From the NCBI GenBank assembly GCA_049609145.1, contig JBMYYF010000002.1:444466-508465 (forward strand): a stretch of DNA of 64,000 nucleotides, in the 5' to 3' direction. Positions 1,445-59,100 of this stretch are shown here, piece by piece (position 1 is the first letter of the stretch; every line of letters starts with the position of its first letter). The translations under genes were made by a program, and so were the position numbers. The DNA comes from Alphaproteobacteria bacterium. Lineage in GTDB: Bacteria > Pseudomonadota > Alphaproteobacteria > SPJN01. The notes below the pieces were generated by a model. That model ran no database searches. It was not told the origin of the DNA and saw only the letters and a program-made list of their open reading frames with translations.

Positions 1445-1452
1445 TGCTGCGC

Positions 1453-3210: not shown

Positions 3211-3213
3211 ACG

Positions 3214-6315: not shown

Positions 6316-6596
6316 GCGCAAATCTCCCTCACCACCCGGAAAACGCATTTGCTGCGCGCCAAACCGGAATTTACTCACATTGTCCCGCAATAATGAGCGT
6401 CATTTGAAAAATATCAGCGATATATGCCTGAAACATATGTGCAATACGAGTCAAAATCTTTCATATTGAGGACGAAGTTTGGCTGGACAATGGGCCAAGC
6501 GGGGCATTAGAATCGGCAGTAACTAACCAAGTGACATAGTCACGGGTCGAATTGGGCGTCGACCTACCGAGGGGATTTCAAGTGAGGAACATCGTT
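6316..6596. promoter_or_regulatory. divergent intergenic region between the T1SS operon and the RTX adhesin gene; contains the perfect palindrome GTGAC-ATA-GTCAC (6531..6543)
   Basis: A 281-bp AT-richer spacer lies between two divergently oriented starts. The palindrome is read directly from the sequence. Promoter or operator function is inferred only. Confidence 0.35.
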
Positions 6597-12500: not shown

Positions 12501-13649
12501 AACGGCACAGACTTGATCATCGATGTTGAAATGATTTTGGGTAGCTCAGAAACAGACAGATTCAGAGGCGATCAGCATGACAACTTCTTCTATGGCGGGG
12601 ATGGCGTTGATAATTTCCTCGAAGGCGGGAGTTTGCTGGTAGATGATGGTATGGGCGGCCAAGTATTGGATCTTTATGCCGATATGGATTTCTTGGTGTT
12701 CGATCCAAGCGCGTTTTGGCCAGCGGATTTCCCCGTTTCCGGCCCATCAAATGGCATCAATATCAATATTGCGACCATGACCATTACCGATGATGGTTTC
12801 GGCAATACGGAATCAACGTCTGATGATTTCCGCGGTATTCTGGCGACCAACCATAATGACACTATTACAGGCACCAATGCCGCAGGGTCAGAAATTCATG
12901 GCTTTGGCGGCAATGACCTCATCATTGGCGGCCAGTTCGATGATGTCATCTTGGGTGGTGATGGTAACGATACCATCGGCGGTGCAGATGGCGATGATGA
13001 ATTGCGCGGCGATGACGGCAATGATTTCCTAGAAGCAGGGATTGGTGATGACACGCTCTCCGGCGGCGCGGGTAATGACGTTCTGTTGGGTGATGCGGGA
13101 TCTGATGTGCTGCTAGGTGGCGCCGGCTCTGACACATTGCGTGGTGGGTTGGGTGATGGGGCTGACGATCTCATGCTTGATTTCTCCGATGGCATAGATG
13201 TAAACACTTATGTTGTGGACATTAATTCCGGTGCAGCAGACGACGCAGCAGATAGCTGGACCCACATAAATGGTGCTGACCAAATTGGCACCAATGATCC
13301 CCTGGCCGCTGAGCTGGAGGATCTGTTGGGCAGCGCAACGGCGCAATTCGCAGTTGGGCAGGATGTGCTGCAATTTATCGATCTTAGCAGTGCTACCAGT
13401 CGCATCGATTCAGAAGCTGATTTTGTAGCGGAATACGATACGTTTAGTCTGCTTAATGCTCGGTGGTTTGCGTCTGTCGATGGCGCTGCAGGCAATGTTA
13501 TTAACGTCTCGTTCGGGGGCGAATCAGCCCTTACCATCGTGCTGGATCAGGATGTTGATACATCGCTTTACGGCAATAATGGCAACTTCAATGATGGGGA
13601 TGCCTTTATCACAGCCCTGGGTGGGTCGGGGTCAATCGACTTCATTTGA
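6597..13649 (+). CDS. giant RTX / cadherin-like (VCBS-type) repeat adhesin, probable T1SS substrate (~2,350 aa)
   Basis: The track ORF starts at TTG 6552; ATG 6597 is preceded by GTGAGGAAC. GGxGxD nonapeptide runs occur at ~6900-7075 ([17 protein letters not shown]), ~10110-10375 and ~12900-13170 ([71 protein letters not shown]). Tandem ~100-aa ...VNDAP... modules and one canonical cadherin module (..[14 protein letters not shown]...[10 protein letters not shown]) lie at ~8400-9660. The protein is acidic and has a ~170-aa non-repeat C-terminus. Confidence 0.9.
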
Positions 13650-28606: not shown

Positions 28607-28990
28607 GTGACGGCGGCCTTGCACAAAACCGGACAAACCCTGCTGGCAGCCTTGGTGCTGCTGGCAAGTGTTTGCCTGTGCATGGCGCCCTTGCCGGTCG
28701 CGCCACAGCTAGACACCGCTCACGCCCATCACGCCGATCAGGCAATGACAATGGCAATGGCAGATGATATGCCCGCGCCGTGTAATGAGACCAACCCGCC
28801 CTGTCATGTGGTGGCGGAAGCCGACAACATCAAGCCGGCGCCCGCTATTGTGGTGCCGCACAGTGTTGTGGCCATCACCGTCTATGCACCCGCAAGCGTG
28901 TTGAAAACCCGGCAGCCATTGACGCGCCTGTCACATTGGGCGCGCCCACCACCTGATCCCGTATCCTACAGGGATCGCAGCCTTACCTGA
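28607..28990 (+). CDS. hypothetical small membrane/secreted protein with a His/Met patch and a Cys pair, immediately upstream of copA (tentative)
   Basis: 127 codons from GTG 28607, 4 nt after the hydrolase stop. It has a hydrophobic N-terminus (LLAALVLLASVCLCMAPL), then HAHHADQAMTMAMADDMPAPCNETNPPCH. G/C is enriched at third codon positions, consistent with coding. I recognise no family. Confidence 0.4.
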   Translation: MTAALHKTGQTLLAALVLLASVCLCMAPLPVAPQLDTAHAHHADQAMTMAMADDMPAPCNETNPPCHVVAEADNIKPAPAIVVPHSVVAITVYAPASVLKTRQPLTRLSHWARPPPDPVSYRDRSLT

Positions 28991-29035: not shown

Positions 29036-30676
29036 ATGCTGAACAGGCGAAATCTATTAACAAGCGGCGCAACTGCCATGGCGGCAACAGCGCTGCTGCC
29101 CCATTGGGCCAAGGCGGCAACCCTCTCAAAGCCGGAAACACTATCCGGCTCCGTTATCAATTTATCCATCGGCAAAACATGGGTGGACCGCGGCGGCAAG
29201 GCCGGATGGGCCAAAACCATCAATGGCACTTTGCCCGGCCCCTTGATCCGCTTGGTGGAAGGGCAAGATGTTGAACTGCGCGTGACCAACACGCTGGATG
29301 AAGATACGTCTTTGCACTGGCACGGCATCTTGTTGCCAACAGAAATGGATGGCGTGCCCGGCCTGTCTTTTCCCGGCATCAAACCGGGGGAGACATTTGT
29401 TTATCGCTACAAGGTGCGCCAGCAGGGCACTTATTGGTATCACAGCCATTCCGGCTTGCAGGAACAGGAAGGGGTGTATGGCCCTCTTGTTATTGACCCG
29501 GCGCAAGAGGTCGATCCGTATGTCGATCACGATCATGTGGTCATGTTATCTGATTGGACCGATGAGGATGCCAACCATCTTTATGCCCGGTTAAAGAAGG
29601 CGCCCGCGGCGGACAATCTGCAGCAACGCACCATGGCGGATTTCTTCGCCGATATAGACGCGCACGGCCTTGCCGCCACCTTGGCGGATCGCAAAATGTG
29701 GGGCGACATGCGCATGGACCCAACAGATTTTGCCGATGTCACTGCCGCCACCTACAGCTATCTCATCAACGGCCAAGGCGCAGGCGCAGGACCGCAGGCA
29801 AATTGGACTGCCCTGTTTAAGCCGGGCCAAAGCCTGCGTCTGCGCTTTATCAATGCCGCCGCCATGACGATCTTCAACGTCAAAATTCCCGGCCTTGAAA
29901 TGCAGGTGGTGGCGGTGGATGGCCAGCCTGTTCAGCCCGTCTTTACGGATGAATTCCAAATCAGTGTGGCCGAAACCTACGATGTGATTGTGCGTCCCAA
30001 GATGGATCAAGCCTATACGATCTATGCAGGCACCAGCGATGGCATGGGCTATGCGCGCGGTACACTGGCCCCGCGGGCGGGTATGGCAGGGGAAGTTCCC
30101 CCGCTCGAAAAACCGCCTCTGCTCACTATGTCTGATATGGGGGCCGACATGAGGGCCAATATGGGCCACGATATGAATATGGCCGCGATGGATCATGCCA
30201 AAATGGACCACAGCAAGATGGACCACAGCAAGATGGGACATGGTCGCCCGCGTAAATTAACGTATCAGGATTTGCGCGCCCGCGCGCCATGGCCGGACCA
30301 ACGGCCACCGCGGCGAAACCTCATCATCAATCTTACGGGCAATATGGAACGCTATATGTGGTCGTTCGACGGTGTGAAATATTCTGAAGTAAAAGGCCCA
30401 ATCCCCTTCACCTTTGGGGAGCGGCTCAAGCTTACGCTCATTAACCAAACCATGATGAACCATCCCATTCATCTGCATGGTATGTGGATGGAGTTGGATG
30501 TAGGACAAGGCCCGCTTAACCCGCGCAAGCACACTATTAACGTCAAGCCCGGTGGCAAGGCGTCTGCCTTCATTACGGCAGATGCGAAGGGGCTTTGGGC
30601 CTTTCATTGTCATCTATTGATGCATATGAAAGCGGGCATGATGCGCGCGGTGCAAGTAAGCGGGGAGGTGGCCTGA
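29036..30676 (+). CDS. copA: copper-resistance multicopper oxidase CopA/PcoA type, Tat-exported
   Basis: 546 aa with AGGAG upstream and a twin-arginine signal (MLNRRNLLTSGATAMAATALL). Cu-site motifs are HWHG, HSH, HPIHLHG and HCHLLMHM. A Met/His-rich loop is present. Confidence 0.92.
   Translation: MLNRRNLLTSGATAMAATALLPHWAKAATLSKPETLSGSVINLSIGKTWVDRGGKAGWAKTINGTLPGPLIRLVEGQDVELRVTNTLDEDTSLHWHGILLPTEMDGVPGLSFPGIKPGETFVYRYKVRQQGTYWYHSHSGLQEQEGVYGPLVIDPAQEVDPYVDHDHVVMLSDWTDEDANHLYARLKKAPAADNLQQRTMADFFADIDAHGLAATLADRKMWGDMRMDPTDFADVTAATYSYLINGQGAGAGPQANWTALFKPGQSLRLRFINAAAMTIFNVKIPGLEMQVVAVDGQPVQPVFTDEFQISVAETYDVIVRPKMDQAYTIYAGTSDGMGYARGTLAPRAGMAGEVPPLEKPPLLTMSDMGADMRANMGHDMNMAAMDHAKMDHSKMDHSKMGHGRPRKLTYQDLRARAPWPDQRPPRRNLIINLTGNMERYMWSFDGVKYSEVKGPIPFTFGERLKLTLINQTMMNHPIHLHGMWMELDVGQGPLNPRKHTINVKPGGKASAFITADAKGLWAFHCHLLMHMKAGMMRAVQVSGEVA
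30188..30232 (+). repeat. in-frame 15-nt tandem repeat (3 units; units 2 and 3 identical) encoding MDHAK-MDHSK-MDHSK in the CopA Met/His loop
   Basis: atggatcatgccaaa (30188..30202), atggaccacagcaag (30203..30217) and atggaccacagcaag (30218..30232), read directly from the sequence. Confidence 0.85.
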
Positions 30677-33324: not shown

Positions 33325-33401
33325 GGACCATCCTTCTCTTTTGTGAAAATGGCTGACTTTCAATCCTGTCAGCAGTTGCAGAAGGTGGTATCGGAATTTT
33401 A

Positions 33402-33429
33402 CCCGTGAGTCAATTTTCTCACTCACGGG
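33402..33429. promoter_or_regulatory. 9-bp perfect inverted repeat (CCCGTGAGT-n10-ACTCACGGG) in the divergent acyl-CoA dehydrogenase / bufA intergenic region; function unknown
   Basis: Read directly from the sequence: arms at 33402..33410 and 33421..33429. Confidence 0.25.
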
Positions 33430-33540
33430 CGCTCACGTGAATGTGTAAAGGCGTCGGTTGTCTGTGAGCGGCGGTGCGGGGCATGGTTTACACGTCGCTA
33501 ACAGGGGTTGGCGCACATAACGAAATTCAGGAGAAATCAA

Positions 33541-33810
33541 ATGAGCAAATCAGGTAAAATCGTCGGTCTGGCCGCAGCAAGCGCAGTTGCCTCTGCATTG
33601 GCCATGGCAACCTTGCCCGCACAAGCCGACGACCATGGCGCCAAGAACGAAAAATGCTATGGCGTTGTGAAAGCTGGCAAAAACGATTGCCAAACAGCGA
33701 CATCTTCATGCGCAGGTACATCAACCGAAGACGGTCAAAAAGATGCCTGGATTTATGTGCCTGCTGGCACTTGCGACAAGCTGGTCGGTGGCAGCAACGC
33801 TGCTGGCTAA
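33541..33810 (+). CDS. bufA: DUF2282-family bufferin precursor peptide (BufA1-like), Sec signal peptide plus 4-Cys core
   Basis: ATG 33541 is preceded by CAGGAG. The 89-aa product is MSKSGKIVGLAAASAVASALAMATLPAQA/DDHGAKNEKCYGVVKAGKNDCQTATSSCAGTSTEDGQKDAWIYVPAGTCDKLVGGSNAAG. It carries the DUF2282 signature EKCYG..KAGKNDC....SCAG....D.W..VP.GTC (Cys39, 50, 57, 78). Confidence 0.85.
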   Translation: MSKSGKIVGLAAASAVASALAMATLPAQADDHGAKNEKCYGVVKAGKNDCQTATSSCAGTSTEDGQKDAWIYVPAGTCDKLVGGSNAAG

Positions 33811-33828
33811 ATTCGGCTAAACCGGTTT

Positions 33829-33890
33829 CAGGCGGCGTGGCGCTCCTTCCCATCTTCTCTCTCCCCAGCCGCGTCGCCTGATTTCTTTTT
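33829..33890 (+). terminator. intercistronic stem-loop plus U-rich tract between the precursor gene and the MNIO gene (candidate partial terminator/attenuator)
   Basis: 13-bp stem CAGGCGGCGTGGC (33829..33841) / GCCGCGTCGCCTG (33868..33880) with two G.U pairs and a 26-nt C/U-rich loop, followed by ATTTCTTTTT. Confidence 0.45.
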
Positions 33891-33909
33891 GAGAACCCAA
33901 GGTCATTCC

Positions 33910-34791
33910 ATGTCTTCCGCCATGCAATCCCAGCCTCTGACCGTTTTCGGCAATGATCTGCCCGCTTGCGCCGGCATTTCGCTGAAGGCCGATCACTATG
34001 AGACGATAGGGCAGGGGAATGTCTCTACCGGGTTTTTGGAGGTGCATGCCGAGAACTATTTTGGCGCAGGTGGTACGCCGCATCATTGGCTTTCCAAGGC
34101 GCGGGAAAACCATGCCCTGTCGGTCCACGGGGTTGGCTTGTCGCTTGGCAGTGCTGCGCGGGTGGATCAAGATCACCTATTGCGGTTGAAAGCGGTTGTG
34201 GATCGCTATCAACCCCAGCAGGTGTCTGAACACATTGCCTTTGCCCGACACGAAGGCGCGTTCCTTAATGATTTGTTGCCGCTGCCCTATACGGACGAGG
34301 CGTTGGCGTGGCTCGTAGACAATATTGATGAAACGCAGCAGGCACTGGGGCAGCGTATATTGGTTGAAAACCCGTCCACTTATTTAACCTTTGCGCATTC
34401 CACCCTTCCCGAAACGGAATTCATTGTAGAGGCTTGCCGCAAGTCCGGCGCAGGGCTGCTGCTCGATATCAATAACGTCTATGTATGCGCGCGCAATCAC
34501 GGCTTTGAGGCCGCGGCGTGGTTGGCGGATATTCCCGCAGATCTGGTGGGCGAAATTCATCTCGCCGGGCACACAGTCAAACAGGTGGAAGGCGTAGAGC
34601 TGCGCATTGATGATCATGGTAGCGCGGTTTGTAAGGAAGTCTGGGCGCTCTACGAAAGTGTCATCGCGCGCATCGGCCCACGCCCCACGCTCATTGAATG
34701 GGACACGGATGTGCCGCCACTTGCCACATTGTTGGCAGAGGCCGCAAAGGCAGATGCGATCATGGCGCATAAGGCGGTGGCAAATGGCTAA
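33910..34791 (+). CDS. bufB: DUF692 / MNIO (multinuclear non-heme iron oxidase) family RiPP-modifying enzyme, BufB-like
   Basis: The track ORF starts at 33889; the first ATG is at 33910 (33922 is an alternative). DUF692/UPF0276 TIM-barrel motifs present: GISLKADHY, LEVHAENYF, SVHGVGLSLGS, VSEHIAF, LVENPSTY, LLDINNVYV, EIHLAGH, PTLIEWD. Confidence 0.88.
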   Translation: MSSAMQSQPLTVFGNDLPACAGISLKADHYETIGQGNVSTGFLEVHAENYFGAGGTPHHWLSKARENHALSVHGVGLSLGSAARVDQDHLLRLKAVVDRYQPQQVSEHIAFARHEGAFLNDLLPLPYTDEALAWLVDNIDETQQALGQRILVENPSTYLTFAHSTLPETEFIVEACRKSGAGLLLDINNVYVCARNHGFEAAAWLADIPADLVGEIHLAGHTVKQVEGVELRIDDHGSAVCKEVWALYESVIARIGPRPTLIEWDTDVPPLATLLAEAAKADAIMAHKAVANG

Positions 34792-35566
34792 CATGCTTTC
34801 ATTGAAAGATTTGCAGGCAGGCTTTGCCGCGCAAGCCATTCCCGCCACCGGCAAAGCCCCGGCAGGTCTGGTGGATTGCGTGTTGGGCAATGGCCTTGCG
34901 CCCGCCGCCCGGCTGCGCGTTCATGCCAACAATACCCGGCTTACCCTAACGGATGCCTTATCCAAAACCTTTCCGGTGATCGCGGCGCTGACCGGTGGTG
35001 AGTTCTTCGCGGCGCTGGCAGCGCACTATATAGAGGCCGATCCTCCAAGGTCCGCCGCCTTGATTGATTGGGGCACGGGCTTTGCAGAGTTTCTGGCAGG
35101 TTTTCAGCCTGCGCAGCAGCTACCCTATTTGCCGGATATGGCGCGCCTTGAATGGGCGGTAAGCGAAAGTTTCAACGCGGCAGATAATGCACCCGCCACG
35201 GCTGATAGCCTGAACGCAATGAACCCGGCCGAGTTGGCCGATGCGCCCTTGCCTTTACACAGCGCGGCCCATTTGCTGAAAGCGGATTGGCCCGTTGATG
35301 ATATTTGGGCGGCGCACCAGCCGGGCGGCCTATCGCTAGATGATATTGATATGACAGGCGGTGATTACCGCATTTTGGTGACGCGCCCCCAATTGGGCGT
35401 GTTCGTGCATCGCTTGGAAGGTGCCGCGGCAGAACTGGCATATTTGTTGAATGAGGGCACGCCCTTTGGCAATGCGCTGGCAGTCTTGGGCGCAGAAGGC
35501 GGGGCCGCCTTTGCGCATTTACTATCTATCGGGGCGCTTGCCACGCCACAAATTGAGGAGGGCTGA
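34784..35566 (+). CDS. bufC: DUF2063-family partner protein (BufC-like, putative precursor-recognition subunit)
   Basis: The long track ORF (34607) overlaps bufB out of frame. I prefer ATG 34784 (MANMLSLKDLQAGFAAQ), which overlaps the bufB stop by 8 nt; ATG 34793 is an alternative. DUF2063-like motifs: RLRVHANNTRLTLTDALSKTFPV and PYLPDMARLEWA. Confidence 0.78.
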   Translation: MANMLSLKDLQAGFAAQAIPATGKAPAGLVDCVLGNGLAPAARLRVHANNTRLTLTDALSKTFPVIAALTGGEFFAALAAHYIEADPPRSAALIDWGTGFAEFLAGFQPAQQLPYLPDMARLEWAVSESFNAADNAPATADSLNAMNPAELADAPLPLHSAAHLLKADWPVDDIWAAHQPGGLSLDDIDMTGGDYRILVTRPQLGVFVHRLEGAAAELAYLLNEGTPFGNALAVLGAEGGAAFAHLLSIGALATPQIEEG

Positions 35567-35568
35567 AT

Positions 35569-36030
35569 ATGCTGGAAAAATTGGGGCCGCTTGGCGGCGT
35601 AGTCACAGGCGCTATCCGCGCATTGGAATCCACGTTGATGGTGTCGCTGGCATTGCTGGCGACCCGCATTGCGGTTGGGCTTGTCTTCTGGCGCTCTGGC
35701 CAAACCAAGGTCGATAGCGATTTCAACGTAACCGACACGACCGTATTGTTGTTCAAATATGAATATGCGGTGCCCGTGTTGGAGCCGAAAGTTGCCGCCA
35801 TCATGGCAAGCTATGCAGAACATGCATTACCCATTCTGCTGTGGCTGGGTTTGGGCGCGCGCATCGGCGCAACCGGCCTTCTCGTGATGACCGCCGTTAT
35901 TCAGTTCTTCGTTTTCTCCAATTCGTGGCCGGAACATATGTTGTGGGCGGCCATGCTGGCAGTGATATTGACGAAAGGGCCGGGGCTCTTCTCCATCGAT
36001 CACTTCATCCGCAAGCGGGAGATGGCATAG
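35569..36030 (+). CDS. bufD: DoxX-family integral membrane protein (BufD-like)
   Basis: 153 aa with GAGGAG upstream, starting 2 nt after the bufC stop. It has four TM segments with a DoxX-like pattern (RIAVGLVFWRSGQTK ... AEHALPILLWLGLGARI). Confidence 0.85.
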   Translation: MLEKLGPLGGVVTGAIRALESTLMVSLALLATRIAVGLVFWRSGQTKVDSDFNVTDTTVLLFKYEYAVPVLEPKVAAIMASYAEHALPILLWLGLGARIGATGLLVMTAVIQFFVFSNSWPEHMLWAAMLAVILTKGPGLFSIDHFIRKREMA

Positions 36031-36085
36031 GGTGCCCACGCCTAAGGGCTTGCATTGATCGGGCGTCGCGTTTCAAACTACGGCA

Positions 36086-36883
36086 ATGTTGGGGGAACAA
36101 CAAAAGCAGGAATTTGCGCGCGATGGCGTCACCCTTTTGCCGGGCCTGCTGGATGCTGCCCAAATGAAGGCGGCGCGCAAGCTTTATGACTGGTCGCTTG
36201 CCAATCCCGGCCCCTTGGCGGTGGAATTGTTTGGGGCAGGCTCCGGCTTTGCGAATGATCTGGTAAACCCGCAAGCGCCCAACCAATATGAAAGCTTCTT
36301 GCGCGCAGGGCCGTTCGCCGAAACGTGCGGTGCGCTTTGGGACGCGTTGCCCTGTTGGTTTATGTATGAACAAGTGTTCAAGAAAGATGCGCCGGAAGGC
36401 GTCGCCCGCACCCCATGGCATCAAGATTTGCCGTATCTCGCGATAGAAGGCGATCACCTCGCTGTGTTCTGGATTTCGTTTGAGGCGCTGCCCGCGTCTG
36501 AGTCTTTGGAGTTTGTCAGAGGCTCTCATACAGGCACTTTATATAATGGCAGCATGTTTGATCCCGAAGATGAAACAAAGCCGATCTATGCAGGTGATGC
36601 GCTGCCTCGCCTGCCGCGTATTGAGGCGGATCGCGCCGCCTATGATATTGTGAGCTTTGCGGTAGAGCCGGGAGATGTGGTGGTGTTTCACCCCGCCATG
36701 CTGCATGGGGGCGCGCCCACGCCCAAGGATAAGCAGCGCCACACGCTTTCCCTACGGTTCTTTGGGGAAGACAGCCGCTTCGCCGAACGCCCCTTCGGTG
36801 CAGGGCTCATGGTGCCGGAACTTAAGGGCACGCTTCAGCCCGGCGATCCGTTTCGGCATGAGAAATTTTTAGAGTTGCATTGA
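36086..36883 (+). CDS. phytanoyl-CoA dioxygenase (PhyH)-family Fe(II)/2-oxoglutarate oxygenase
   Basis: 265 aa. Motifs: QEFARDGVTLLPGLLD; the facial triad context PWHQDLPY (HxD) and a distal HGG (VVFHPAMLHGG); and R..LSLRF. Confidence 0.78.
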   Translation: MLGEQQKQEFARDGVTLLPGLLDAAQMKAARKLYDWSLANPGPLAVELFGAGSGFANDLVNPQAPNQYESFLRAGPFAETCGALWDALPCWFMYEQVFKKDAPEGVARTPWHQDLPYLAIEGDHLAVFWISFEALPASESLEFVRGSHTGTLYNGSMFDPEDETKPIYAGDALPRLPRIEADRAAYDIVSFAVEPGDVVVFHPAMLHGGAPTPKDKQRHTLSLRFFGEDSRFAERPFGAGLMVPELKGTLQPGDPFRHEKFLELH

Positions 36884-36949
36884 TCCAAAACACTTTCTGA
36901 CATCCTCAATGAACAGCTCCGGCTGTTCCATGGCGGCGAAGTGCCCGCC
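36884..36949 (-). pseudogene. relic 3' fragment (22 codons) of an epoxide-hydrolase paralogue
   Basis: The minus-strand reading GGHFAAMEQPELFIEDVRKCFG is identical at peptide level to the C-terminus of the intact gene (copy at 37000..37065). By my hand alignment 56 of 66 nt are identical, including a 30-nt perfect core (CATCCTCAATGAACAGCTCCGGCTGTTCCAT region). No upstream coding continuation is present. Confidence 0.6.
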
Positions 36950-36984
36950 CCCAAAATCAAAAGACAAGGGCGCGCGCGAGCGGA

Positions 36985-38207: not shown

Positions 38208-40100
38208 TCAAGGCTGAGATTTGGGGAACAACAGATTGGTGAGATAGCGCGCACCGGAAAGCGTTAAATGGCCGTGATCCCATATCAGCAGGTCAACACC
38301 CTGCGGCGTATCGATTGTGGCCTGACAGGCATGGGCATCGCAAAGCTGCGCATCGATGGAAAGATAGGTGTGGCCATGTTTGGCGGCCATCGCGCTTACC
38401 TCTGCATCCTTGCGGCGCATTTCTTCCCGATTGGTTGGCGGCAGGCGGCGCGCAACGTCCAGTGAATGGCCCTCACGCAGCATCCATGTAGGTAGCGTTG
38501 GTCGCCATTGCGGCATAGCCCCAATCAGTACGATGCGCGTTTGCGGTGAGGCATCTTTCAATTGCGTCAACGTATAGTCCAGCCAATCCAGATGATACGT
38601 GCCCCACATGGCATGCATTATCAGCAGTTGCGGCTTGGTGTCGGCAATATGCGCCAACACAAATTTGTTATTGGGAATGCAGTTTTGATAATTGTAGTAC
38701 AGCCCCTTCAGCAAGGGCGGGCAAACCGCGGTGGTGAGTTGCGCCAAGTTTGGGAATATATGGCGCAGGCCGGTGGTTAAGGCCGCGGCATGTGAATCGC
38801 CCCATACAATTACCCGGTTATCTGCGGCTGGGTCTGCCAAGCATTTTTCGGCAAAACTGCCTGCCGGTTGTTCGGGCATCAACAAGCATTCCCCGCGCAG
38901 ATATTCGGTGTCTTCGTCAAAATCGGCCGCTTTCAACACCGCTTGTTCGGCGGCGCTTAATCGAAACGTGAACCCGTCGGTTGCCTTGCCCGCCGCGCCG
39001 ATGGCGCAAAACAGCAAAATGCCCGCGGCTGAGAAGGCGAAAATCTGGCCGCGCGATACGCTGTTCTTGTCGCGGAAGGGTTTTTCAACATAACGCCAGC
39101 TCAGATAGGCCATGGCGATGGCGGCAACAGCAAGGCCAAGGGCCAATGCGGCGTCTAAATGGCCAACCGTGATTTGGCGTGCAAAGGCAAATAGGGGCTG
39201 ATGCCAAAGATAGGCGCTGTAGCTCAGCAGCCCAAGGCCGACCACAAGCCGCTGGCCCAGCAATTTTCCGGCAAGGGTTTGGGGGGTGCAATAAAGAATG
39301 ATAGCGGCCGTACCAAGGGTGGCAGGCAGCATGACAATGCCCGGAACATGTGCTTGTGGCGTCAGCCAGATAATGGAGCCGCAGATGCCCGCAAGGCCCA
39401 AAATGGATATCACCTCGCGTTGCATTTTCTGCGCTGGGCTTTGCGCCGCTCCCAAGGGCCTCCTTTGCAAGTATAGCGCCGCCAAGGCCCCCACCAACAA
39501 TTCCCAGCCGCGGGTTGGCAGCAAGTAAAATGCGGTAGATGGGCTAAGCCGCGCGCCCGCCTCCGCCAGTGCGAGTGACGCCAAAAGGCCCAGCGTCAGT
39601 AACGCCATCAGCCAACGGCTTAGCGATAACCGCCACACCGCCATCAACAGCAATGGATAAAGCACATAAAATTGTTCTTCTACCGCCAGGCTCCACGTAT
39701 GGAGCAGCGGTTTCATTTCGTTGACGGTGTCGAAATATCCGCTGTTTTGCCAGAAGAACACGTTCGACCAAAAGGTAGAGGTGGAAATCAGGCTGGTAGA
39801 GAAGTTTTCCAAATCTTCGGGCACCAGCAGAAAATAGGCAGCAGGCAAGCAGCACGCCATAACGAAAAACAGGGCCGGCAAAATGCGCCTTGCGCGCCTT
39901 TCGTAAAACCCAACGATTGAAAATTCGCCGCTGCGTTCATGTTCCTGAACGATGATGGTCGTGATCAAATAGCCGGAGATCACGAAAAAGATATCCACCC
40001 CCACAAAGCCGCCGCCGAAACTATCAAAGCCTGCGTGAAACAAAATCACAGGCAGCACGGCCAGCGCCCGCAGGCCATCTATCTCGCGGCGATATTGCAT
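38208..40100 (-). CDS. acyltransferase family 3 (OafA/YrhL-like) membrane O-acyltransferase with a C-terminal SGNH domain
   Basis: 630 aa. The N-terminus MQYRREIDGLRALAVLPVILFHAG is followed by ~10 TM segments, then a soluble domain with VWGDSHA (SGNH block I-like). Confidence 0.85.
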   Translation of the reverse strand: MQYRREIDGLRALAVLPVILFHAGFDSFGGGFVGVDIFFVISGYLITTIIVQEHERSGEFSIVGFYERRARRILPALFFVMACCLPAAYFLLVPEDLENFSTSLISTSTFWSNVFFWQNSGYFDTVNEMKPLLHTWSLAVEEQFYVLYPLLLMAVWRLSLSRWLMALLTLGLLASLALAEAGARLSPSTAFYLLPTRGWELLVGALAALYLQRRPLGAAQSPAQKMQREVISILGLAGICGSIIWLTPQAHVPGIVMLPATLGTAAIILYCTPQTLAGKLLGQRLVVGLGLLSYSAYLWHQPLFAFARQITVGHLDAALALGLAVAAIAMAYLSWRYVEKPFRDKNSVSRGQIFAFSAAGILLFCAIGAAGKATDGFTFRLSAAEQAVLKAADFDEDTEYLRGECLLMPEQPAGSFAEKCLADPAADNRVIVWGDSHAAALTTGLRHIFPNLAQLTTAVCPPLLKGLYYNYQNCIPNNKFVLAHIADTKPQLLIMHAMWGTYHLDWLDYTLTQLKDASPQTRIVLIGAMPQWRPTLPTWMLREGHSLDVARRLPPTNREEMRRKDAEVSAMAAKHGHTYLSIDAQLCDAHACQATIDTPQGVDLLIWDHGHLTLSGARYLTNLLFPKSQP

Positions 40101-50730: not shown

Positions 50731-53700
50731 ATGAGCATGAATCGCATCGTATTGGGCTTGAGCGGAGCTCTGCTGGGCACAACTGCGTTAACAACCGCCT
50801 TGCTGGGAACTTTGACAACCGGGGCACAGGCCGCAGATGTTGAAACGGATTCTGCCTTGGCTGCGGCAACCGTGGTCTTTGATCTTGCCGTAAACGAAAA
50901 AGTTGGCACCGCGCAAACCAATGGAGCAGATATCGTTGGGTTGATTACGGGGTCTACCGTTGATGTGACCGTTGTTGGCGCATATGCCGGAGACGCGATT
51001 GCCAGCAACAGCGCTATCAGCGTTGACAGTGCCGGTAATGTTGCCGATTTCTCCATCGCGGGCGGTGCCCCCGGCGCGCGTCGTGCCATTGGATCGGGCC
51101 AGCTTAACACCGAAGATGTTACCAGCACGTTGACCGGGGCCTTTACAGGCGTGAGCGTGACCGGCTCAATCATTGATCCGGCGACGGTGACGGTAGAAGG
51201 CAATCTGCAACAGGTTGTCTCCACCGTGAACGACAGCGCGGTGAACATTGCCGCCAGCGGGGCCTTTAGCGGCACACTGGATGCACCGGCCACGGATTTG
51301 ACCGGCAACGCCGCAGACGCGACCGGAGAGATCGCAGCAGCCATTTCCCAGCATTCGATTGATACCGCTCCCCCCAGCTTAATTGATACGCGCGCCACCT
51401 TGGGCGGGCTTGCTGCGACAGAAGTCAATATGATCGGGCTGGAGCTTGGGGCGGCTACCCCGATGAGCAATCCGGCCGGGGCCACGATCAGCGGCAATAC
51501 GGGCCAAGCCATTGCGCAAGGCAACGTTGCAAGCCTGACCGCGACAGAGGCTGTGAACGGCACGGATATTGATGTGGCGCTGGCCACAAATCAAACCGTG
51601 GATAGTTTAGCGGTCGTGCACGCCGAAGGGTTTCAAAACCGCGTGGGTATTCATGGTGCGGCCGGTGCCAATGTTGATGGGACGGGCGGCACCGTTAACA
51701 TCGCGATCTCGGATAACAGCACAAATCTGGTTTCAGCCGTGAACACGGCCACGCATAATGTCACCGCCGGTCCGGGGGATGCCGCCAGTCAGGTCGTGTC
51801 TGATATTGCGCAGGCAGGCGGTGTGGGTGATGCGCGCTTTCGCGATACCAGCCATGGGGTTGAACTGGAAGATGGTGCCATCACCGGGGCTAATATTACC
51901 ATCAGCGGCTCTACCCTTGCCGGGCAGGCAACAAATAATGACGCCACCCAGAACCTGACTTTGACCGGTGGCGTCGTGGCGGGCACCGTAGCCACCACCA
52001 CGACCCAAAACACCGGGGCAGGCGACATAGTGCAAGTCTTGCCTGCGATCGGCGAGATGCGCATTGGGGTGCGCACCGGCGGCAATGCGATCACCTCCAC
52101 CGATCTTACCATTAGCGGCAATGCCATTACCGGCACGGCAATAGGCAATCGCGCCACTGATAATCTGGCGGACATCACCGGCAATATTACCGCTGGCGTG
52201 GGCCAAACCATCACCCAAGGGTCCGATGGCGCGGCGGTGCAGGCCTTGGTGAATGATGATGGTGATGACATTGTGATCGGTATTGATGATGCGACTGAGT
52301 TTAACGACGGCAATTTGCTGATCAGCAATAACAATATTGGGGCAAGTGCCACAGGCAACGCCGCTGTGCAAAACCGCGGTGATCTGACCGGGGCAATCTC
52401 TGCCACAGTCAGCCAAAATGTTGCACAAACCAGCGATAATATCACCTCTATGCGCGCCGCTGTATCAGACGCGGTATTTGGGCCGGATGGCACGAGCGAC
52501 ACAAATCTGGCGCGGAACACCGGGGATGTGGATTTTACCGTCAGCGGCAATGCGGTGACAGCACAGGCAGATGTAAATGCCGTTAGCCGCACTTTGGGCA
52601 CAGTAACCGGCACAGTGACCGGGGCGGATGTTGTGGCGAGCACAACACAGGCCAACGACACAATTGGCGGGGCCGCTGTGGCCGCCCAACTTTCCGGCCT
52701 TTCCTTCGGGGTGGGGTCTGACGGCGGCAATGGCGGCCTCTTCGGTGATTTTGGCAGCAACAGCACCGATGTGACCATCACAAACAACAGTGCCACCGCA
52801 GCGATGCGGGGCAATGTAGCGATCACCACGTCTGAACCTGTTTTGGGCGGCTTGGCAGATTTTGCCACCGGCGGGGCTGATGGCGGCTCCATCACCGTGC
52901 TGGAAGATCAAAACAATACGGCTACCACATTGTTGGCGGAGGTTTCCGACGGGGTTGCCACCCATGGGGTGGCGATCGGCATTATTGGTCAAACGGGCTT
53001 CCTCGGCCCCCGCGAAGACCACAGTATTATCATCAGCGGCAATCAGGTGGGCACGCAGGTGGAGGGCAATGTGGCCGCCACGGCTTTGGGCAGCATTACG
53101 GGCACCTTTACAGATGGCGGTGTTGCTAATTTTGAAGGGGTGGGCGCGCGCCACCGCCAGTCCAATGGTGGAGACAACAGCTTTAGCGCCCAAACTTCTG
53201 ATGTTGCTATTGGCGGCACAGGATCACATTTTCTACTCGGATTGAATTTTGGCCAAGTCTCAACCATGCTGGTGGAAGGCAATGATATTTCTGCCAGCGC
53301 CACAGCGAACAATTCGCAGATCAGCCTTGCCGGTTTTACCGGCACGTTAAGTGATAATTACGCTATTGGCCGCCCGCAAATTACGCCGGATGGGGATATT
53401 GCGCCTAATACCACGCTGGCGCAAACCACGGCCAGCAGTTCGATCAGCGCCAGCACCGCCAACAGTTCCGTCGGTATCCATGATATTGAGGTCGTATCCG
53501 GGGGTGGGCGGTCAGATATTACAGTGGGTGGCAATACGATAAGCGCGCTGGCCACTGGCAATGCCGCGCGCTACAACTTTGGGGCCTTTAACGGCACGCT
53601 GAGCGGCGGGGCCGATCACATATTCGGCGCTTATCAGGCCAATTCAAACGTTGATGTGCTGGCCACCTTGAACCCGGTAGCGACAGACAGCCTGCGTATT

Positions 53701-55800
53701 GGTATCAATAATTTAAGCAGTCGATTTGCGGATCTTGGTCCAGCGACGGCGACGATTCAGGGCAATACAGCCTTGGCGCAGGCGATCAGCAATACAAACG
53801 CCTTACGGCTGGACAGCTTTACCGGCAATGCCAGTGGCGCAGGCACAGAGGCGCTGTTCTTCCGGTCCGTACAATGGACCAATGACACCTTCGGCGCGTC
53901 CACCGTGATCGCCAGGGCAGATCAACTAACCCTCGGCGTTAATGATGTGGGCGGTATGGGGAATAATATCAACGCTAATGCCGAGATAGTGGTGACGGAT
54001 AATGTGTTCGGCGCCGTGTCTTTGATGAATGTCAGTGATCAATCTGTGGGGGCCATTACCGCTGCCACGATTGAGGATGGCGCGCGGATTTATCTGGGCA
54101 CAGAACACATGGAATGGGCACCCGTTACACCCATTACAGGCACGGCCAGCCTGGCCAACAGTCGTTTGGGCGTGATTAATGTGGGGGACATTGGAAGTTT
54201 TTTCTCCTCTTCTGCACAAATTACGATCAGTGACAATGTCGCCCGGGCCTCGGCCTTTGGGGGCTCCGTCTCTTTGATTGTGGAAGAATTTAATGGCACC
54301 TTGGCCTCCACCGGGCCTGCGGGGTCAGCCGGTATTCATCTCAATCATTTTAATGATGCAATTACGGCGCGGTTCAACGCCACGATCAACAATGTGCAAA
54401 TTGGCGTTGGGGCAGGTAATGTTGCTGCACCAGAAAATACGAGTGCCAATTTTGCCATTACGGGTAATCAGGTGTTGGCGACGGCAGGTGGGGATACGGC
54501 GACACTGGGCCTGTTCACCAATGGCTTTACGGGCACCTTGTCCGGTTCTGCCTTGTTTGAGGTGGAACAGCGCTTTATCGGGGCCTCTCAATCCAACGCG
54601 ACGATTCAGAACACAACGACAGGCCTTGCTTCTGGGGGGAGCGTGGCCGCTGGCAGCGGCAGCGTTGTCAATCTGACCGTGGCGGGCAACAGCCATGTGG
54701 CCACTGCCGGGGCAAATGATGCCACACTCATTCTGGGCGATATTACGGGCACCTTGTCTGGCTCAATCTCGCTTGACACAACCGTGCGCAACCAATTGCA
54801 AAGCCACGCCCCAACAGCCATCACCTCTCAAGTGATCGATAGCGGTATCGGCTTTTCCGCAGGCGCGTTGGCGCAAGGGGCCGGGGCAAGCCTTGGGGTT
54901 GTCGTGACCAATAACCGGCAAGCGGCCACTGTTACCGTCAACAATATGGCGATTGCCGCCGGGGCGATTGTGGGCGGTGTTTCCGGCTCTATCACCTTGC
55001 GGGATGAACAACGGGTTTCCGGTGACAGCACCGCGACAATCAATAATGTCGATACAGGGATGCGCATTGTTGGCTTGGTCGGGACTAACGACGTTCGACC
55101 TACGCTTAATGTTTCTGGCAATATCACGCAGGCGGCTTTGACAGCGAACCGATCCGTCACCCGCGTGGAAGAATTGGTGATGGCAGGTCAAGGCAATGTA
55201 AGCTTGGGTGCCACGCAAAATATGGTGCCGGATGGTAGCGGTGATCCAGATATCTCAGCGGTGGTCACCAATAGTGTGGAAACCGGGATTGATATTTTCA
55301 CGCCCGCCGGAGGGACGCTCAATGTGGATGGTATTGTCGCCAACAATAACACATCGGCTGATGTTGCGGGCAATGTTGCCATCAGCGCCGTGCTGGATTT
55401 GGGCGGTGTTCTTTCAGCACCCGGCTCCGTATTGGTGGAAGATGTGCAAACCATAAGCGCAGGCACCATCGGGTCGTCAGTTAGCGGGGCTTATACTCAA
55501 ATTGACCTGACGGCAGGTACCATTATCGGCTCTGCCATTTTGAACGAAAACAGGATTGGCAGCTCCGCCGTGGGGAACGCCCAGATGGCTGATATCGCCA
55601 CATCAGGTCTTGCCGTTGGCGGCATAATCGGCATTGGCGGCACCCAAAGCAACGCGGCACCTGTCAGTTCTTCGGTCACAGGTTCAGCGATCGGGGTTGA
55701 AGGCAATACAAGCGTATCCATGACCAATACCAGCATTGTGCGTGGTGGCGGGATCACATCGCAGGCTATTGGCAACAGCGCCGTTGGTTCCATTCGCTGA
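50731..55800 (+). CDS. giant (1,689 aa) secreted beta-strand/beta-helix-like repeat protein, paralogue 1; family not recognised
   Basis: GGGAGTGG lies upstream, and the Sec signal peptide is MSMNRIVLGLSGALLGTTALTTALLGTLTTGAQA/AD. It has on the order of 20 repeats of ~70-80 aa with the core [IV]-x-[GN]-N-x-h-x-A-x-A-x-G-N-x-A-x(3)-h-x-x-h-T-G-T. The composition is G/A/T/N/S/V-rich. By eye there is no Cys and only one Lys. Confidence 0.85.
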   Translation: MSMNRIVLGLSGALLGTTALTTALLGTLTTGAQAADVETDSALAAATVVFDLAVNEKVGTAQTNGADIVGLITGSTVDVTVVGAYAGDAIASNSAISVDSAGNVADFSIAGGAPGARRAIGSGQLNTEDVTSTLTGAFTGVSVTGSIIDPATVTVEGNLQQVVSTVNDSAVNIAASGAFSGTLDAPATDLTGNAADATGEIAAAISQHSIDTAPPSLIDTRATLGGLAATEVNMIGLELGAATPMSNPAGATISGNTGQAIAQGNVASLTATEAVNGTDIDVALATNQTVDSLAVVHAEGFQNRVGIHGAAGANVDGTGGTVNIAISDNSTNLVSAVNTATHNVTAGPGDAASQVVSDIAQAGGVGDARFRDTSHGVELEDGAITGANITISGSTLAGQATNNDATQNLTLTGGVVAGTVATTTTQNTGAGDIVQVLPAIGEMRIGVRTGGNAITSTDLTISGNAITGTAIGNRATDNLADITGNITAGVGQTITQGSDGAAVQALVNDDGDDIVIGIDDATEFNDGNLLISNNNIGASATGNAAVQNRGDLTGAISATVSQNVAQTSDNITSMRAAVSDAVFGPDGTSDTNLARNTGDVDFTVSGNAVTAQADVNAVSRTLGTVTGTVTGADVVASTTQANDTIGGAAVAAQLSGLSFGVGSDGGNGGLFGDFGSNSTDVTITNNSATAAMRGNVAITTSEPVLGGLADFATGGADGGSITVLEDQNNTATTLLAEVSDGVATHGVAIGIIGQTGFLGPREDHSIIISGNQVGTQVEGNVAATALGSITGTFTDGGVANFEGVGARHRQSNGGDNSFSAQTSDVAIGGTGSHFLLGLNFGQVSTMLVEGNDISASATANNSQISLAGFTGTLSDNYAIGRPQITPDGDIAPNTTLAQTTASSSISASTANSSVGIHDIEVVSGGGRSDITVGGNTISALATGNAARYNFGAFNGTLSGGADHIFGAYQANSNVDVLATLNPVATDSLRIGINNLSSRFADLGPATATIQGNTALAQAISNTNALRLDSFTGNASGAGTEALFFRSVQWTNDTFGASTVIARADQLTLGVNDVGGMGNNINANAEIVVTDNVFGAVSLMNVSDQSVGAITAATIEDGARIYLGTEHMEWAPVTPITGTASLANSRLGVINVGDIGSFFSSSAQITISDNVARASAFGGSVSLIVEEFNGTLASTGPAGSAGIHLNHFNDAITARFNATINNVQIGVGAGNVAAPENTSANFAITGNQVLATAGGDTATLGLFTNGFTGTLSGSALFEVEQRFIGASQSNATIQNTTTGLASGGSVAAGSGSVVNLTVAGNSHVATAGANDATLILGDITGTLSGSISLDTTVRNQLQSHAPTAITSQVIDSGIGFSAGALAQGAGASLGVVVTNNRQAATVTVNNMAIAAGAIVGGVSGSITLRDEQRVSGDSTATINNVDTGMRIVGLVGTNDVRPTLNVSGNITQAALTANRSVTRVEELVMAGQGNVSLGATQNMVPDGSGDPDISAVVTNSVETGIDIFTPAGGTLNVDGIVANNNTSADVAGNVAISAVLDLGGVLSAPGSVLVEDVQTISAGTIGSSVSGAYTQIDLTAGTIIGSAILNENRIGSSAVGNAQMADIATSGLAVGGIIGIGGTQSNAAPVSSSVTGSAIGVEGNTSVSMTNTSIVRGGGITSQAIGNSAVGSIR

Positions 55801-55863: not shown

Positions 55864-56142
55864 GTTGCCCCAAGTGCGCCGAGACTTCTGCATCCTTCTT
55901 GGCTTTGAACGCGGATGAAGCTGTAAAGCGTGTCTGAAGGGTGATCTTGGTGGGTTTCAGGCAAAAAACCGGCATATTCTGGACAGAAACCCGCAATTTT
56001 CTTGCCAGCCGCCCTCAAATAGATGAAAATTTCCGTGAGTTTAAGGGTTGGTTTTGAGGTTGGCGATTTTTTGGTCGTGCGATCCCTCTGTCTATACCAA
56101 GGCCTAAACATGTCGCGTAACGCACAAACATTCGGGGTGGCT

Positions 56143-59100
56143 ATGTCCAAATTGCACAAAAACCTGGTTTCCGGTCTGTCGGGCCTGCTGCTTGGCACGA
56201 CAGCGTTGACAGGTGTCGCTGTGGCGCAGGTTGACGTTACGTCGAATGCGACCGTGCCCAGCGTGGTGTTTGGTGTTGCACCTGTTGTGAACCAACAACT
56301 ATCGGCAGCGCAGGGCCATGCGGCGCCGGTCACAGGCTCCATCGTTGGCACGGATGTATCGGTGATTGCCGCAGGCCCCATCGCAGCAGATGTGATTATC
56401 AGCTCCACGGTTTATGGGGCGGCAGGCACGGCCAACAGCGCCACGGAAACCATTTTGGCAAGTGCGGCAGGCGACAGGCGTTCTGTCGGGGTGGCGCAAG
56501 ATAATTCGGGCGCGGTGGTGTCGGAAACACTCAGCAGCCTGACCGGGCTTGATTTACAGCATATCGCCAGCGGCCCCATGGTGGTGGAGGTGGATAACAC
56601 GACCTATACCGTTGCCTCCCAAGCCAATGTCTCAACCGCTTTCAACGCCGGCGGGGCGCTGGTGACGGGCAGTGCGCTTGATGATGCAACAACCACTGTG
56701 GGTGCAGGCACGGCCACGGCCTTGGGCGAGATTGCAATTGCCACGGCCCAGACAAATAGTGGCGAGGTGACGAGCGATTTAAATGATGGCAACACAGCGA
56801 CCCGCAATTTGATTGGGGTGGAGATGTCCAGCGGGACGGCCTCTATCACCAATACGGGCGGGGTGATTGTGTCCAACACCACGGCCACCGCCATGGCAAC
56901 GGCCAACAGCGCCACCAGCACAGTGGTGGATGCCGTGACCGTGGGGGATGTTGATGTGGCAGTCGCCACCTTCCAATCCATCAGCAGCGGGGCGGATATT
57001 ACTGCCGATGCCCGAGAAAATCATATCGGGATTGAGGGCGTGGGCGGTGCCTCTATCACCGGGGCAGCGCCCGGCGCCATCCCGCTGACCATTAGCGATA
57101 ATCATATGGGGTCTGAGGCCACAGGCAACAGCGCCACCCATACTATCACGGCGCGGCCCGATGCGGCGGGGGATCAGGTGGTGGGTGCCATTTTGCAAGA
57201 TTTCCAAGCGGGATCGGAGGTTGATGTACGCACGAGAAGCAACACATTTGGTGTCTCCACCCGGGATACGAACCTGACAGGTGCCACAATTACCATTAGC
57301 GGCAATCGCGGTACGGCCACCGCGATCGGCAATGAAGCCGCGCAGGATGTGCTGGTTGATGTGGGCGGTGTTGGCGGGGCCGGCATCACCACCACAACCA
57401 CGCAAACCGCGGCAGAGGAAGACGTTGAAGGGCGAGTTGATGACGCTCTGATTGGGGTTGAAGTGCGGCCGGATGGTGGCGGTTTTGGCGGCACGTTGAG
57501 TGGCGCAACTGTGCTGATAGAGGGTAATGAAATGCTGGGCACTGGTTTGGTGAATACGGCCCGCCAATCTTTGGGTGCTGTCACCGGTGATATTACGGCC
57601 CCAATTGCCCAAACGATCAACCAAACAGTTGGTCCGGGAAGCACGGGCGGCGCCGAGGCAGATGCGGTTTCTAACAATTTTGGTGTGTCGCGCGCGACGG
57701 GGATCAATAATACCAGCATTCAAATCTCCAATAACCGCAATGTGGCTACCACAATCTACAATAATGCGGAGAGCTTGCGCGGCGATCTAACCGGCACCAT
57801 CACCGCCTCCGTCACGCAGGATGTGATCCAACGCAATGAAGATCTGGGTAGCGGTGCTGAAAGCGAGGCCAGGGCGGCGTATTTCGGTGTTAACTTTGAT
57901 ACTGATGCCGCCTTGGCGCAGGCAGATGGGGATGTGAACCTGCTGGTTGCCAACAATATATCGCTCGCCCATGCCACCAACAATATGGCAGTGGCACGCA
58001 GCGGGGCGATTGCCGGTGTGGTAAGCGGTACAATTAATGTGAGCGTTTCTGCCACGCAAACAAATTTTGATACGGATGTCGAATCAGACACATCAAGTTC
58101 TGAAATCGGCATTACCCGCGGTTTCAACACCACGCCTCTTGGGACTGATACATATCATACGGATTTAACGGTTGCGGGGAATGAACTGCGCGCGCTGAGC
58201 CAAGGCAATGCAGCCGCGTTGGCAGCGGGAGATGTAACCGGCACTTTGTCTGCCGGGGCAAATTATGGGGTGACCTCTACCCAGCTTAATAGACGCGCTA
58301 TTGATGGCACGGGGGATGGGGGGGAGATTCGGGCTCAAGCTGGCGAATCGCGCATTGGGTGGAGGCGGCAAACTGTTGCCCATGGGATAGATGATCAGGA
58401 TTTCACTATTCTGGTGCAAAACAATGTGAGCGCCGTAACCGCCATTGGCAATATGGCCGCCCATGAAGTGGGGCAGATTACCGGCACTGTGGATGGCAGC
58501 ACGGTCACCGCCCGCGCCACCCAAACCAATGAGGATGGGGATGATGATGGGGAGATTGTGGCCGATGGTGGTAATCCGATTATCGGCATTATCTCTGATA
58601 ATGGCGCCTTTGTGTTGGGGACGATGTCCAACAATGTGGCGACCTTTGCGGTAACGGGTAACCGCAGTGAGGTGGATGGCATTGGCAACACAGCCAGCGT
58701 CGCCATTGGGGATGTAACCGGCACGGTGAGTGATAACAGTTCCGTTAGGGCGGAAATTGACCAAACCAATAGCGGGCTGGACTTAACGTCGGATGCCGGT
58801 TCCATTGATATGGGCGTGCAGGCAGGCGGTGGCACCGATAGTGCGGGAAGTGATGGCACGGTGGTGATTGATGTCACCAATAATATCAGTGAGGCCACAA
58901 CTACCGGCAATGCGGCTTTGGCCCAGTTGGGGGATATGACCGGCACCATCGACGACTCAGACTATTTAATCAATACGACGCAAACCAGTCAGCAATTTGA
59001 TAGCACTGACAGCACTTTTAGGGCGCGCGCTGAAGAGGGGCGGATAGGCTATTTCGCCAGCGCCGTCATGGGACGCAGCGGTTCGGTGCGCACCACGATC

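Follow-up and report, generated by a model that had tools for sequence, protein, structure and literature searches.

A very likely Buf1-type bufferin biosynthetic gene cluster near copAB in an alphaproteobacterial genome

Results

Four genes in the layout of a bufferin operon

We analysed the bufABCD locus in a 64,000-nucleotide stretch of DNA from an alphaproteobacterium of the lineage SPJN01 (GenBank assembly GCA_049609145.1, contig JBMYYF010000002.1, positions 444,466 to 508,465 of the forward strand; the whole stretch is called the window here, and coordinates refer to it), and with high confidence we assign this locus to the Buf1-type bufferin biosynthetic gene clusters, also termed "gig-like" operons. 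A preliminary description of the same DNA had proposed four co-directional open reading frames (ORFs) encoding a DUF2282 precursor, a multinuclear non-heme iron oxidase (MNIO) of the DUF692 family, a DUF2063 partner protein, and a DoxX membrane protein, in the architecture of the gig and bufferin operons. All four ORFs are present, each product matched the model of its family above the cut-off, and the layout is that of buf1ABCD/gig as published (PMC11626156). The genes and the parts of the precursor gene are the following.

33541-33810, + strand: bufA, 89 amino acids, ATG start, DUF2282/BufA1 family; AGGAGA ribosome-binding site 7 nucleotides upstream
33541..33627, + strand: predicted Sec-type signal peptide of bufA, codons 1-29 (MSKSGKIVGLAAASAVASALAMATLPAQA), from charge, hydrophobic window, and A-x-A site
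33628..33810, + strand: bufA core peptide (60 amino acids) and stop codon, DUF2282/BufA1 family, four cysteines
33910-34791, + strand: bufB, 293 amino acids, MNIO (DUF692) maturase
34784-35566, + strand: bufC, 260 amino acids, DUF2063 partner protein
35569-36030, + strand: bufD, 153 amino acids, DoxX-family membrane protein

The assignment of the four products is based on profile scores that are far above chance. In Pfam, BufA matched PF10048 (DUF2282) with 85.5 bits against a cut-off of 22.4 (E 2e-24; 52 of the 53 profile positions covered), BufB matched PF05114 (MbnB_TglH_ChrH) with 333 bits against 25 (E 1e-99), BufC matched PF09836 (DUF2063) over residues 11-104 with 69.7 bits against 27.2, and BufD matched PF07681 (DoxX) with 58.9 bits against 23.6. 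In NCBIfam, BufB scored 365.4 bits, with a cut-off of 310, against the equivalog model NF050167, "MNIO family bufferin maturase" (MNIO_BufB). The tight spacing ascribed to the genes in the preliminary description holds at two of the junctions, the 8-nucleotide overlap of bufB and bufC and the 2-nucleotide gap between bufC and bufD, which suggest translational coupling; it does not hold between bufA and bufB, where the gap is a wide 99 nucleotides.

The arrangement is conserved among related loci, to which we refer by number where they need to be told apart. The closest relative, L004 (GCA_025450675.1), has gene products of 88, 294, 260, and 153 amino acids, in agreement with the lengths found here. 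Relatives at 50-90% identity keep the order bufABCD, as do most of those among 80 metagenomic loci with enough downstream sequence; nearly every related locus has bufC in this place, and bufD is kept in place in L004, L005, L007, L008, and L009 as well as in many metagenomic loci. No sequence feature is at odds with the reading of the locus as a Buf1-type cluster.

The maturase BufB belongs to the bufferin type

BufB fell far below the cut-offs of the HvfB (226 bits against 360), ApyH, MbnB, and ChrH models of NCBIfam. Because NF050167 scored above its cut-off and these rival models below theirs, we assign BufB to the bufferin type and not to the oxazolin, methanobactin, or chryseobasin types. 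The nearest solved structure to BufB is the DUF692 protein 3BWW (E 3e-37), followed by TglH and MbnB. In MbnB, Fe1 is bound by H54, H90, and E133, Fe2 by E133, D163, H192, and E239, and Fe3 by N166, D208, and H210 (PMC9060507). Alignment to 7TCR places H108, E153, D186, N189, H217, D234, and H236 of BufB at MbnB H90, E133, D163, N166, H192, D208, and H210, respectively. From motif conservation we infer that H73, in the motif HG..LSLG, and E263, in LIEWD, which aligns with LLERD of 3BWW, are iron ligands as well. Judged by its sequence, the catalytic apparatus of BufB looks intact.

The precursor BufA carries a predicted signal peptide and four conserved cysteines

The preliminary description of BufA, as a precursor with a Sec-type N-terminus ending at AQA29 and a 60-residue core with the four-cysteine DUF2282 pattern, was borne out in each of these respects. 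The cysteines lie at positions 39, 50, 57, and 78 of the precursor, which are positions 10, 21, 28, and 49 of the core. The signal peptide was judged by inspection and with a simple script for hydrophobicity and the -3/-1 positions: it has K3 and K6 at its N-terminus, hydrophobic residues from 7 to 25 (mean Kyte-Doolittle value 1.97), and AQA29 at -3/-1. Of 40 aligned BufA homologues, every one has a small-x-small site as well as a hydrophobic window, and 36 carry an N-terminal K/R charge. Experiments on Caulobacter vibrioides have shown that its BufA1 is exported by Sec and cleaved where predicted (PMC11626156). We infer that BufA would likewise be exported by Sec and cleaved after AQA29.

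A database search retrieved 3,635 BufA homologues, several of which are named "BufA1 family periplasmic bufferin-type metallophore" in UniRef; by these matches the source is an alphaproteobacterium with kinship to Emcibacter/Kordiimonas-like taxa. In the alignment of 40 homologues the BufA core is close to the family consensus EKCYGVVKAGKNDCQTATSSCAGTS..DGQKDAWIYVPAGTC.KLVGGS, and the four cysteines, K38, G41, N48-D49, and W70 are among the invariant residues. The sequence search with BufA against solved structures returned nothing meaningful. The monoisotopic mass of the core is 6048.726 Da unmodified and 6038.648 Da for the predicted mature form; the cysteines predicted to become thiooxazoles, at -4.03 Da each, would be found in the tryptic peptide NDCQTATSSCAGTSTEDGQK.

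Comparison with characterised MNIO systems

The closest characterised counterpart is buf1ABCD of C. vibrioides (CCNA_03363-03366, PMC11626156), where these four genes occur in identical order and include those for a BufB-type MNIO, a DUF2063 protein, and a DoxX protein. In the Buf1 peptide of that organism, with core cysteines 12, 23, 31, and 52, CysII and CysIII each lose 4.03 Da and were assigned by nuclear magnetic resonance (NMR) as 5-thiooxazoles, and CysI and CysIV form a disulfide. Like BufA here, C. vibrioides BufA1 is a DUF2282 protein with a Sec signal peptide and four cysteines; the I-II spacing of 11, the III-IV spacing of 21, the Asp before CysII, and the Ser and Ala that flank CysIII are the same in both. 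The two precursors differ in core length (60 amino acids here, 68 in C. vibrioides), in the II-III spacing (7 here, 8 there), and in the residue after CysII (Gln here, Lys there). The loci differ too, since the one described here lacks an adjacent sigF-nrsF pair and the motif GTAACC-N16-CGAA, and has a 99-nucleotide bufA-bufB spacer with a hairpin and copAB 2.2 kb upstream.

The gig operons (gold-induced genes) of Cupriavidus metallidurans and Legionella pneumophila, which we compared by their description in the literature alone, contain the same four genes, are induced by metals, and today count as bufferin clusters. The systems HvfABC(X)/oxazolin, fontiphorin, and gonophorin ("captophorins" with EGKCG repeats) share the MNIO and its DUF2063 partner, often with DoxX, as well as Cys-derived 5-thiooxazoles, copper binding, and precursors with a signal peptide. 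Their precursor, however, is an EGKCG-repeat peptide, whereas BufA is a DUF2282 protein without EGKCG repeats. Methanobactin biosynthesis by MbnABC has in common an enzyme of the MNIO fold with the same iron ligands, the oxidative modification of cysteine, and a copper-binding product. MbnB is nonetheless distant from BufB (59 bits against a cut-off of 325 for TIGR04159), its partner MbnC is not a DUF2063 protein, and its short precursor has a leader peptide where BufA has a Sec signal peptide; the product, with oxazolone/thioamide chemistry, is a chalkophore secreted for copper acquisition.

Proximity to copAB is confined to a lineage

Copper-resistance genes lie upstream of the cluster on the same strand.

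29036-30676, + strand: copA, multicopper oxidase, TIGR01480 copper_res_A 735 bits
30676-31362, + strand: copB, PF05275 CopB 212 bits

The end of copB is 2,178 nucleotides from bufA, with a divergently transcribed acyl-CoA dehydrogenase gene between them. The closest relatives, L004, L005, and L009, have BufA proteins 87-90% identical to the one described here. In L004 the order is abhydrolase, small ORF, copA, copB, acyl-CoA dehydrogenase (-), bufABCD, epoxide hydrolase (-), GST (-), and SecA (-); the loci of L009 and L005 are shorter and follow the L004 gene order as far as they reach. In L007 (69% identity) the acyl-CoA dehydrogenase gene stands beside bufABCD without copAB, and an Emcibacter genome (L008) has two tandem buf clusters, also without copAB. 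A scan of genome contigs found only three relatives at about 50% identity. The G+C content is flat across the buf region.

The distance of 2.2 kb between copAB and buf given in the preliminary description is accurate, and the adjacency supports, by context, a role in copper defence. The proximity is real but confined to a lineage, because it is lost in L007 and absent from Emcibacter and the 80 metagenomic loci; as copper context it is lineage-specific only. We considered copAB as a part of the cluster itself and, given their presence in L004 and L009 and their absence from L007 and the metagenomic loci, counted them as neighbourhood.

Some further features of these loci were observed. A 127-amino-acid ORF directly upstream of copA (28607-28990) combines a hydrophobic segment at its N-terminus with a C-x6-C-H motif and HAHHADQAMTMAMADDM, a stretch rich in His and Met; the ORF matched no Pfam or NCBIfam model, is conserved in L004 (129 amino acids), and may encode a copper-related accessory protein. 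The tandem clusters of Emcibacter (L008 7876-12490) consist of bufABC and then bufABCD, with a canonical terminator-like hairpin behind the first bufA. In several metagenomic loci (L061 1098-2731, L082, L055, and L067), two to five tandem bufA-like genes stand upstream of a single bufB.

A conserved upstream block is a candidate operator

The DNA upstream of bufA contains a conserved segment.

33421..33470, + strand: conserved non-coding block of about 50 nucleotides, about 70-120 nucleotides upstream of bufA, candidate promoter/operator

The block contains the direct repeat CTCACgggcgCTCAC (CTCAC-N5-CTCAC, with a 10-bp period) followed by AATGTGTaaagGCGTCGgTTGtcTGTGAGC, and within it TGTGT and TGTGA elements lie downstream of the repeat. 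Between the window and L009, L004, and L007, the last of which has a BufA only 69% identical, the block hardly varies, and the intergenic DNA on its flanks diverges. In L009, an insertion of about 130 nucleotides separates it from the block on the acyl-CoA dehydrogenase side, and because of this insertion we conclude that the spacing of the block is preserved towards bufA rather than towards the dehydrogenase gene. This pattern of conservation suggests that the block is probably the promoter/operator of the buf operon for some regulator. In the Emcibacter genome, too, a YTCAC-N5-YTCAC repeat stands before the second bufA; the repeat was not found in other Buf1 loci.

Two other candidates for control elements were discarded. 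A structured RNA 5' of bufA had no support, there being no Rfam match in the whole window and only a weak consensus fold (-8.8 kcal/mol), and the look-alike CTAACA-N17-CGAA at about 33499-33525 is unconserved and lies so near the start codon and its ribosome-binding site that it is an implausible promoter. A second conserved intergenic block, at 33352-33420 and nearer to the start of the acyl-CoA dehydrogenase gene, has the palindrome CTGAC-N10-GTCAG (CTGACTTTCAATCCTGTCAG) and is kept in the window, L009, and L004; it is probably the operator of that gene.

A hairpin between bufA and bufB

The 99-nucleotide spacer between bufA and bufB is largely taken up by a stem-loop.

33828..33891, + strand: bufA-bufB stem-loop with a 14-bp G+C-rich stem and a 26-nucleotide C/U-rich loop, followed by AUUUCUUUUU

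The centroid structure gives the stem -27.8 kcal/mol. Both L009 and L004 retain the stem, in which one pair (27/66) is changed on both sides (AU<->GC) and there are several one-sided changes, and L007 and L008 have unrelated hairpins at the same position. [quoted passage not shown] The hairpin is probably, by its structure and position, a partial terminator or stabiliser that would raise precursor mRNA over enzyme mRNA. We examined it as a general bufferin feature and rejected this, as the bufA-bufB gap in most Buf1 loci is shorter than 40 nucleotides and has no hairpin; because of these short gaps we regard the hairpin as lineage-specific.

A recent insertion downstream and other genes of the window

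Directly downstream of bufD lies an insertion of about 950 nucleotides (36027-36979). L004 and L009 lack it, and in them bufD and the epoxide hydrolase gene are convergent neighbours. The insertion contains the following gene.

36086-36883: PhyH/MysH-like Fe/2OG (iron/2-oxoglutarate) dioxygenase gene, starting 55 nucleotides after bufD, inside the insertion 36027-36979

The insertion also holds a duplicate of 50-65 nucleotides of the 3' end of the epoxide hydrolase gene, at 36885-36949, which looks like a recombination scar. The PhyH gene is a recent insertion. It is apparently co-transcribed with bufD, and a more speculative idea is that the dioxygenase adds a further modification to the peptide. 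We judged such a tailoring role unlikely, given the absence of the insertion from L004 and L009, the likeness to MysH, a small-molecule dioxygenase that is the closest solved relative of the protein, and the fact that no PhyH gene was seen near other Buf1 loci; because no other Buf1 locus has one, we take this neighbour to be incidental.

Elsewhere in the window, another segment that is inserted in comparison with L004 and L009 (38148-40264) lies between the epoxide hydrolase and GST genes and carries an AT3-SGNH acyltransferase gene (38208-40100, - strand). Two adjacent giant ORFs, 50731-55800 and 56023-61131 (1,689 and 1,702 amino acids), had no Pfam or NCBIfam match, and in the translation of the latter Thr, Ala, Gly, Ser, and Asn are abundant. 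Within 320-13649, an RTX/cadherin-repeat protein of 2,365 amino acids (6552-13649) adjoins a type I secretion set made up of an ABC transporter (4546-6390), an HlyD-like protein (3214-4545), and an outer-membrane efflux protein (1453-3210).

Discussion

Gene content, order and coupling, the four family memberships, the cysteine pattern, the BufB iron ligands, and the signal-peptide features are established for this locus, and the steps of the mechanism that we propose are derived by homology to C. vibrioides Buf1. BufA would be made as an 89-residue precursor, on which the multi-iron oxidase BufB and its DUF2063 partner BufC would carry out O2-dependent four-electron oxidations in the cytoplasm, turning the central cysteines C50 and C57 (C21 and C28 of the core) into 5-thiooxazole heterocycles. 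Modified BufA would then cross the inner membrane through Sec and lose its signal peptide after AQA29, and a disulfide between the outer cysteines C39 and C78 would lock a small fold of two strands and a helix. The 60-residue product is predicted to bind Cu(I)/Cu(II) through its thiooxazoles and so to buffer excess periplasmic copper. BufD, the DoxX protein, would be an accessory membrane protein and is probably not needed for the modification; C. vibrioides BufD is dispensable both for modification and for copper protection (PMC11626156), and DoxX genes are frequent in such clusters without being essential to them.

Several results weigh against the assignment of the locus to the Buf1 bufferins. 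The AlphaFold2 model of BufA has strands at 36-40 and 70-74 and a short helix at 78-80, which agrees with the published Buf1 topology, but it is of low confidence (mean predicted local distance difference test score, pLDDT, of 52) and was left unused for fold searches. BufC and BufD scored below the Hvf equivalog cut-offs of NCBIfam (HvfC 41 bits against 142, and HvfX 47 against 80), so that neither has a specific curated model; this is expected of a Buf1 system and fits such a system better than an Hvf one. Searches against solved structures, with the single BufC sequence and with a 25-sequence profile, gave no match, 3DEE included, and a C-terminal RRE-like domain was thus unconfirmed. In none of the 80 metagenomic Buf1 loci was copA, copB, or the dehydrogenase gene found within 6 kb, so linkage to copAB is not general. 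Finally, no sigma-factor or NrsF domain was detected among the long ORFs of the window, although such regulators could be encoded elsewhere in the genome, and the SigF motif GTAACC-N16-CGAA is absent near buf. Control by SigF/NrsF, in which SigF is an extracytoplasmic function (ECF) sigma factor, is common in Buf1 clusters and does not define them, and across 77 loci the motif occurred upstream of bufA twice against 1.4 expected, which is no enrichment.

What the cluster does and how its product is modified could be read in other ways. The same genes might serve against another stress, such as a different metal (Au, Cd, Cr, U, or Hg) or a reactive species of chlorine or oxygen-type oxidants, and the binding of copper would then be incidental. 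It was through induction by gold, chromium, and cadmium that the founding operons were discovered, SigF/NrsF-type systems in other settings are reported to respond to hypochlorite (PMC4436054 and PMC8315932), and a 2025 survey (PMC12452194) reports MerC fusions and proposes roles for other metals; here, no copper regulator turned up near buf, and the adjacency of copAB is lineage-specific. However, the sole characterised Buf1 system has a copper phenotype on deletion and binds copper in the femtomolar range, and three related genomes of this lineage have buf at 2.2 kb from copAB, so we consider a non-copper role unlikely. It is quite improbable that the modified residues are instead oxazolone-thioamide pairs of the methanobactin kind, isomers of 5-thiooxazoles in which O and S are swapped. 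The two have the same mass, and homologous MNIO products (oxazolin and MovA) were initially assigned in this way, but NMR of Buf1 favours the thiooxazole; oxazolin and related products were later reassigned to 5-thiooxazole, and DUF2063-dependent MNIOs are proposed to install thiooxazoles broadly, with a diagnostic absorbance at about 305 nm and sensitivity to alkylation.

Two further explanations would deny the cluster a working product altogether or place it outside the RiPPs. The survey PMC12452194 reports stand-alone precursor genes and warns that some clusters may be non-functional, and a DUF2282 protein that is exported unmodified, or not made, would provide no metal buffering. Such a cryptic or decayed state is highly improbable here, where four intact and coupled ORFs, conserved catalytic ligands, and the conservation of every cysteine come together with an operon that is syntenic and evidently under purifying selection among relatives whose proteins are 66-90% identical. 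Older annotation treats DUF2282 as an integral membrane protein that acts with DoxX in sulfur/quinone redox metabolism: PF10048 is called "Predicted integral membrane protein" in the Pfam copy that we used, JGI labels homologues "uncharacterized membrane protein", and BufD has a weak DoxD-like match besides DoxX. Yet the sole hydrophobic segment of BufA is its N-terminal signal peptide, and in C. vibrioides the mature protein is experimentally soluble, periplasmic, and modified and DoxX is dispensable (PMC11626156), which makes this idea extremely improbable. We therefore retain the reading of the locus as a Buf1-type bufferin cluster.

The locus is an orthodox further example of a large and well-described family: its identification was right, and the system is not new. 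Bufferins were characterised biochemically and genetically in C. vibrioides in 2024 (PMC11626156), they were surveyed in 2025 across more than 14,000 MNIO proteins and more than 40,000 genomes (PMC12452194), and in 2026 a "captophorin" class was proposed that takes them in; PMC11626156, PMC12452194, and PMC13097082 give accounts of what the family does and of its chemistry. The preliminary rating of the locus as the strongest candidate for a newly recognised system in the window does not stand, as the characterisation of the system dates from 2024 and a catalogue of it in thousands of genomes from 2025. Nor would automated annotation leave four hypothetical or DUF labels, as had been supposed, for there are an NCBIfam BufB equivalog, BufA1 names in UniRef, and the current Pfam names "BufA1" (PF10048) and "HvfC_N" (PF09836).

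The locus answers no open question, and its value is local. It offers an example of a Buf1 cluster without adjacent SigF/NrsF, and its conserved candidate operator and precursor-proximal hairpin are leads on the control of bufferin expression and stoichiometry outside Caulobacter; both leads are small and lineage-specific. A tentative proposal, which we think more likely wrong than right by some distance, is that the buf operon was rewired from SigF/NrsF to another regulator acting at the YTCAC-N5-YTCAC/TGTGA block, with the hairpin tuning the ratio of precursor to enzyme, and that it forms one periplasmic copper module with CopAB. The position of a bufferin operon beside copAB in a marine or soil alphaproteobacterial lineage gives contextual support for a function in copper defence.

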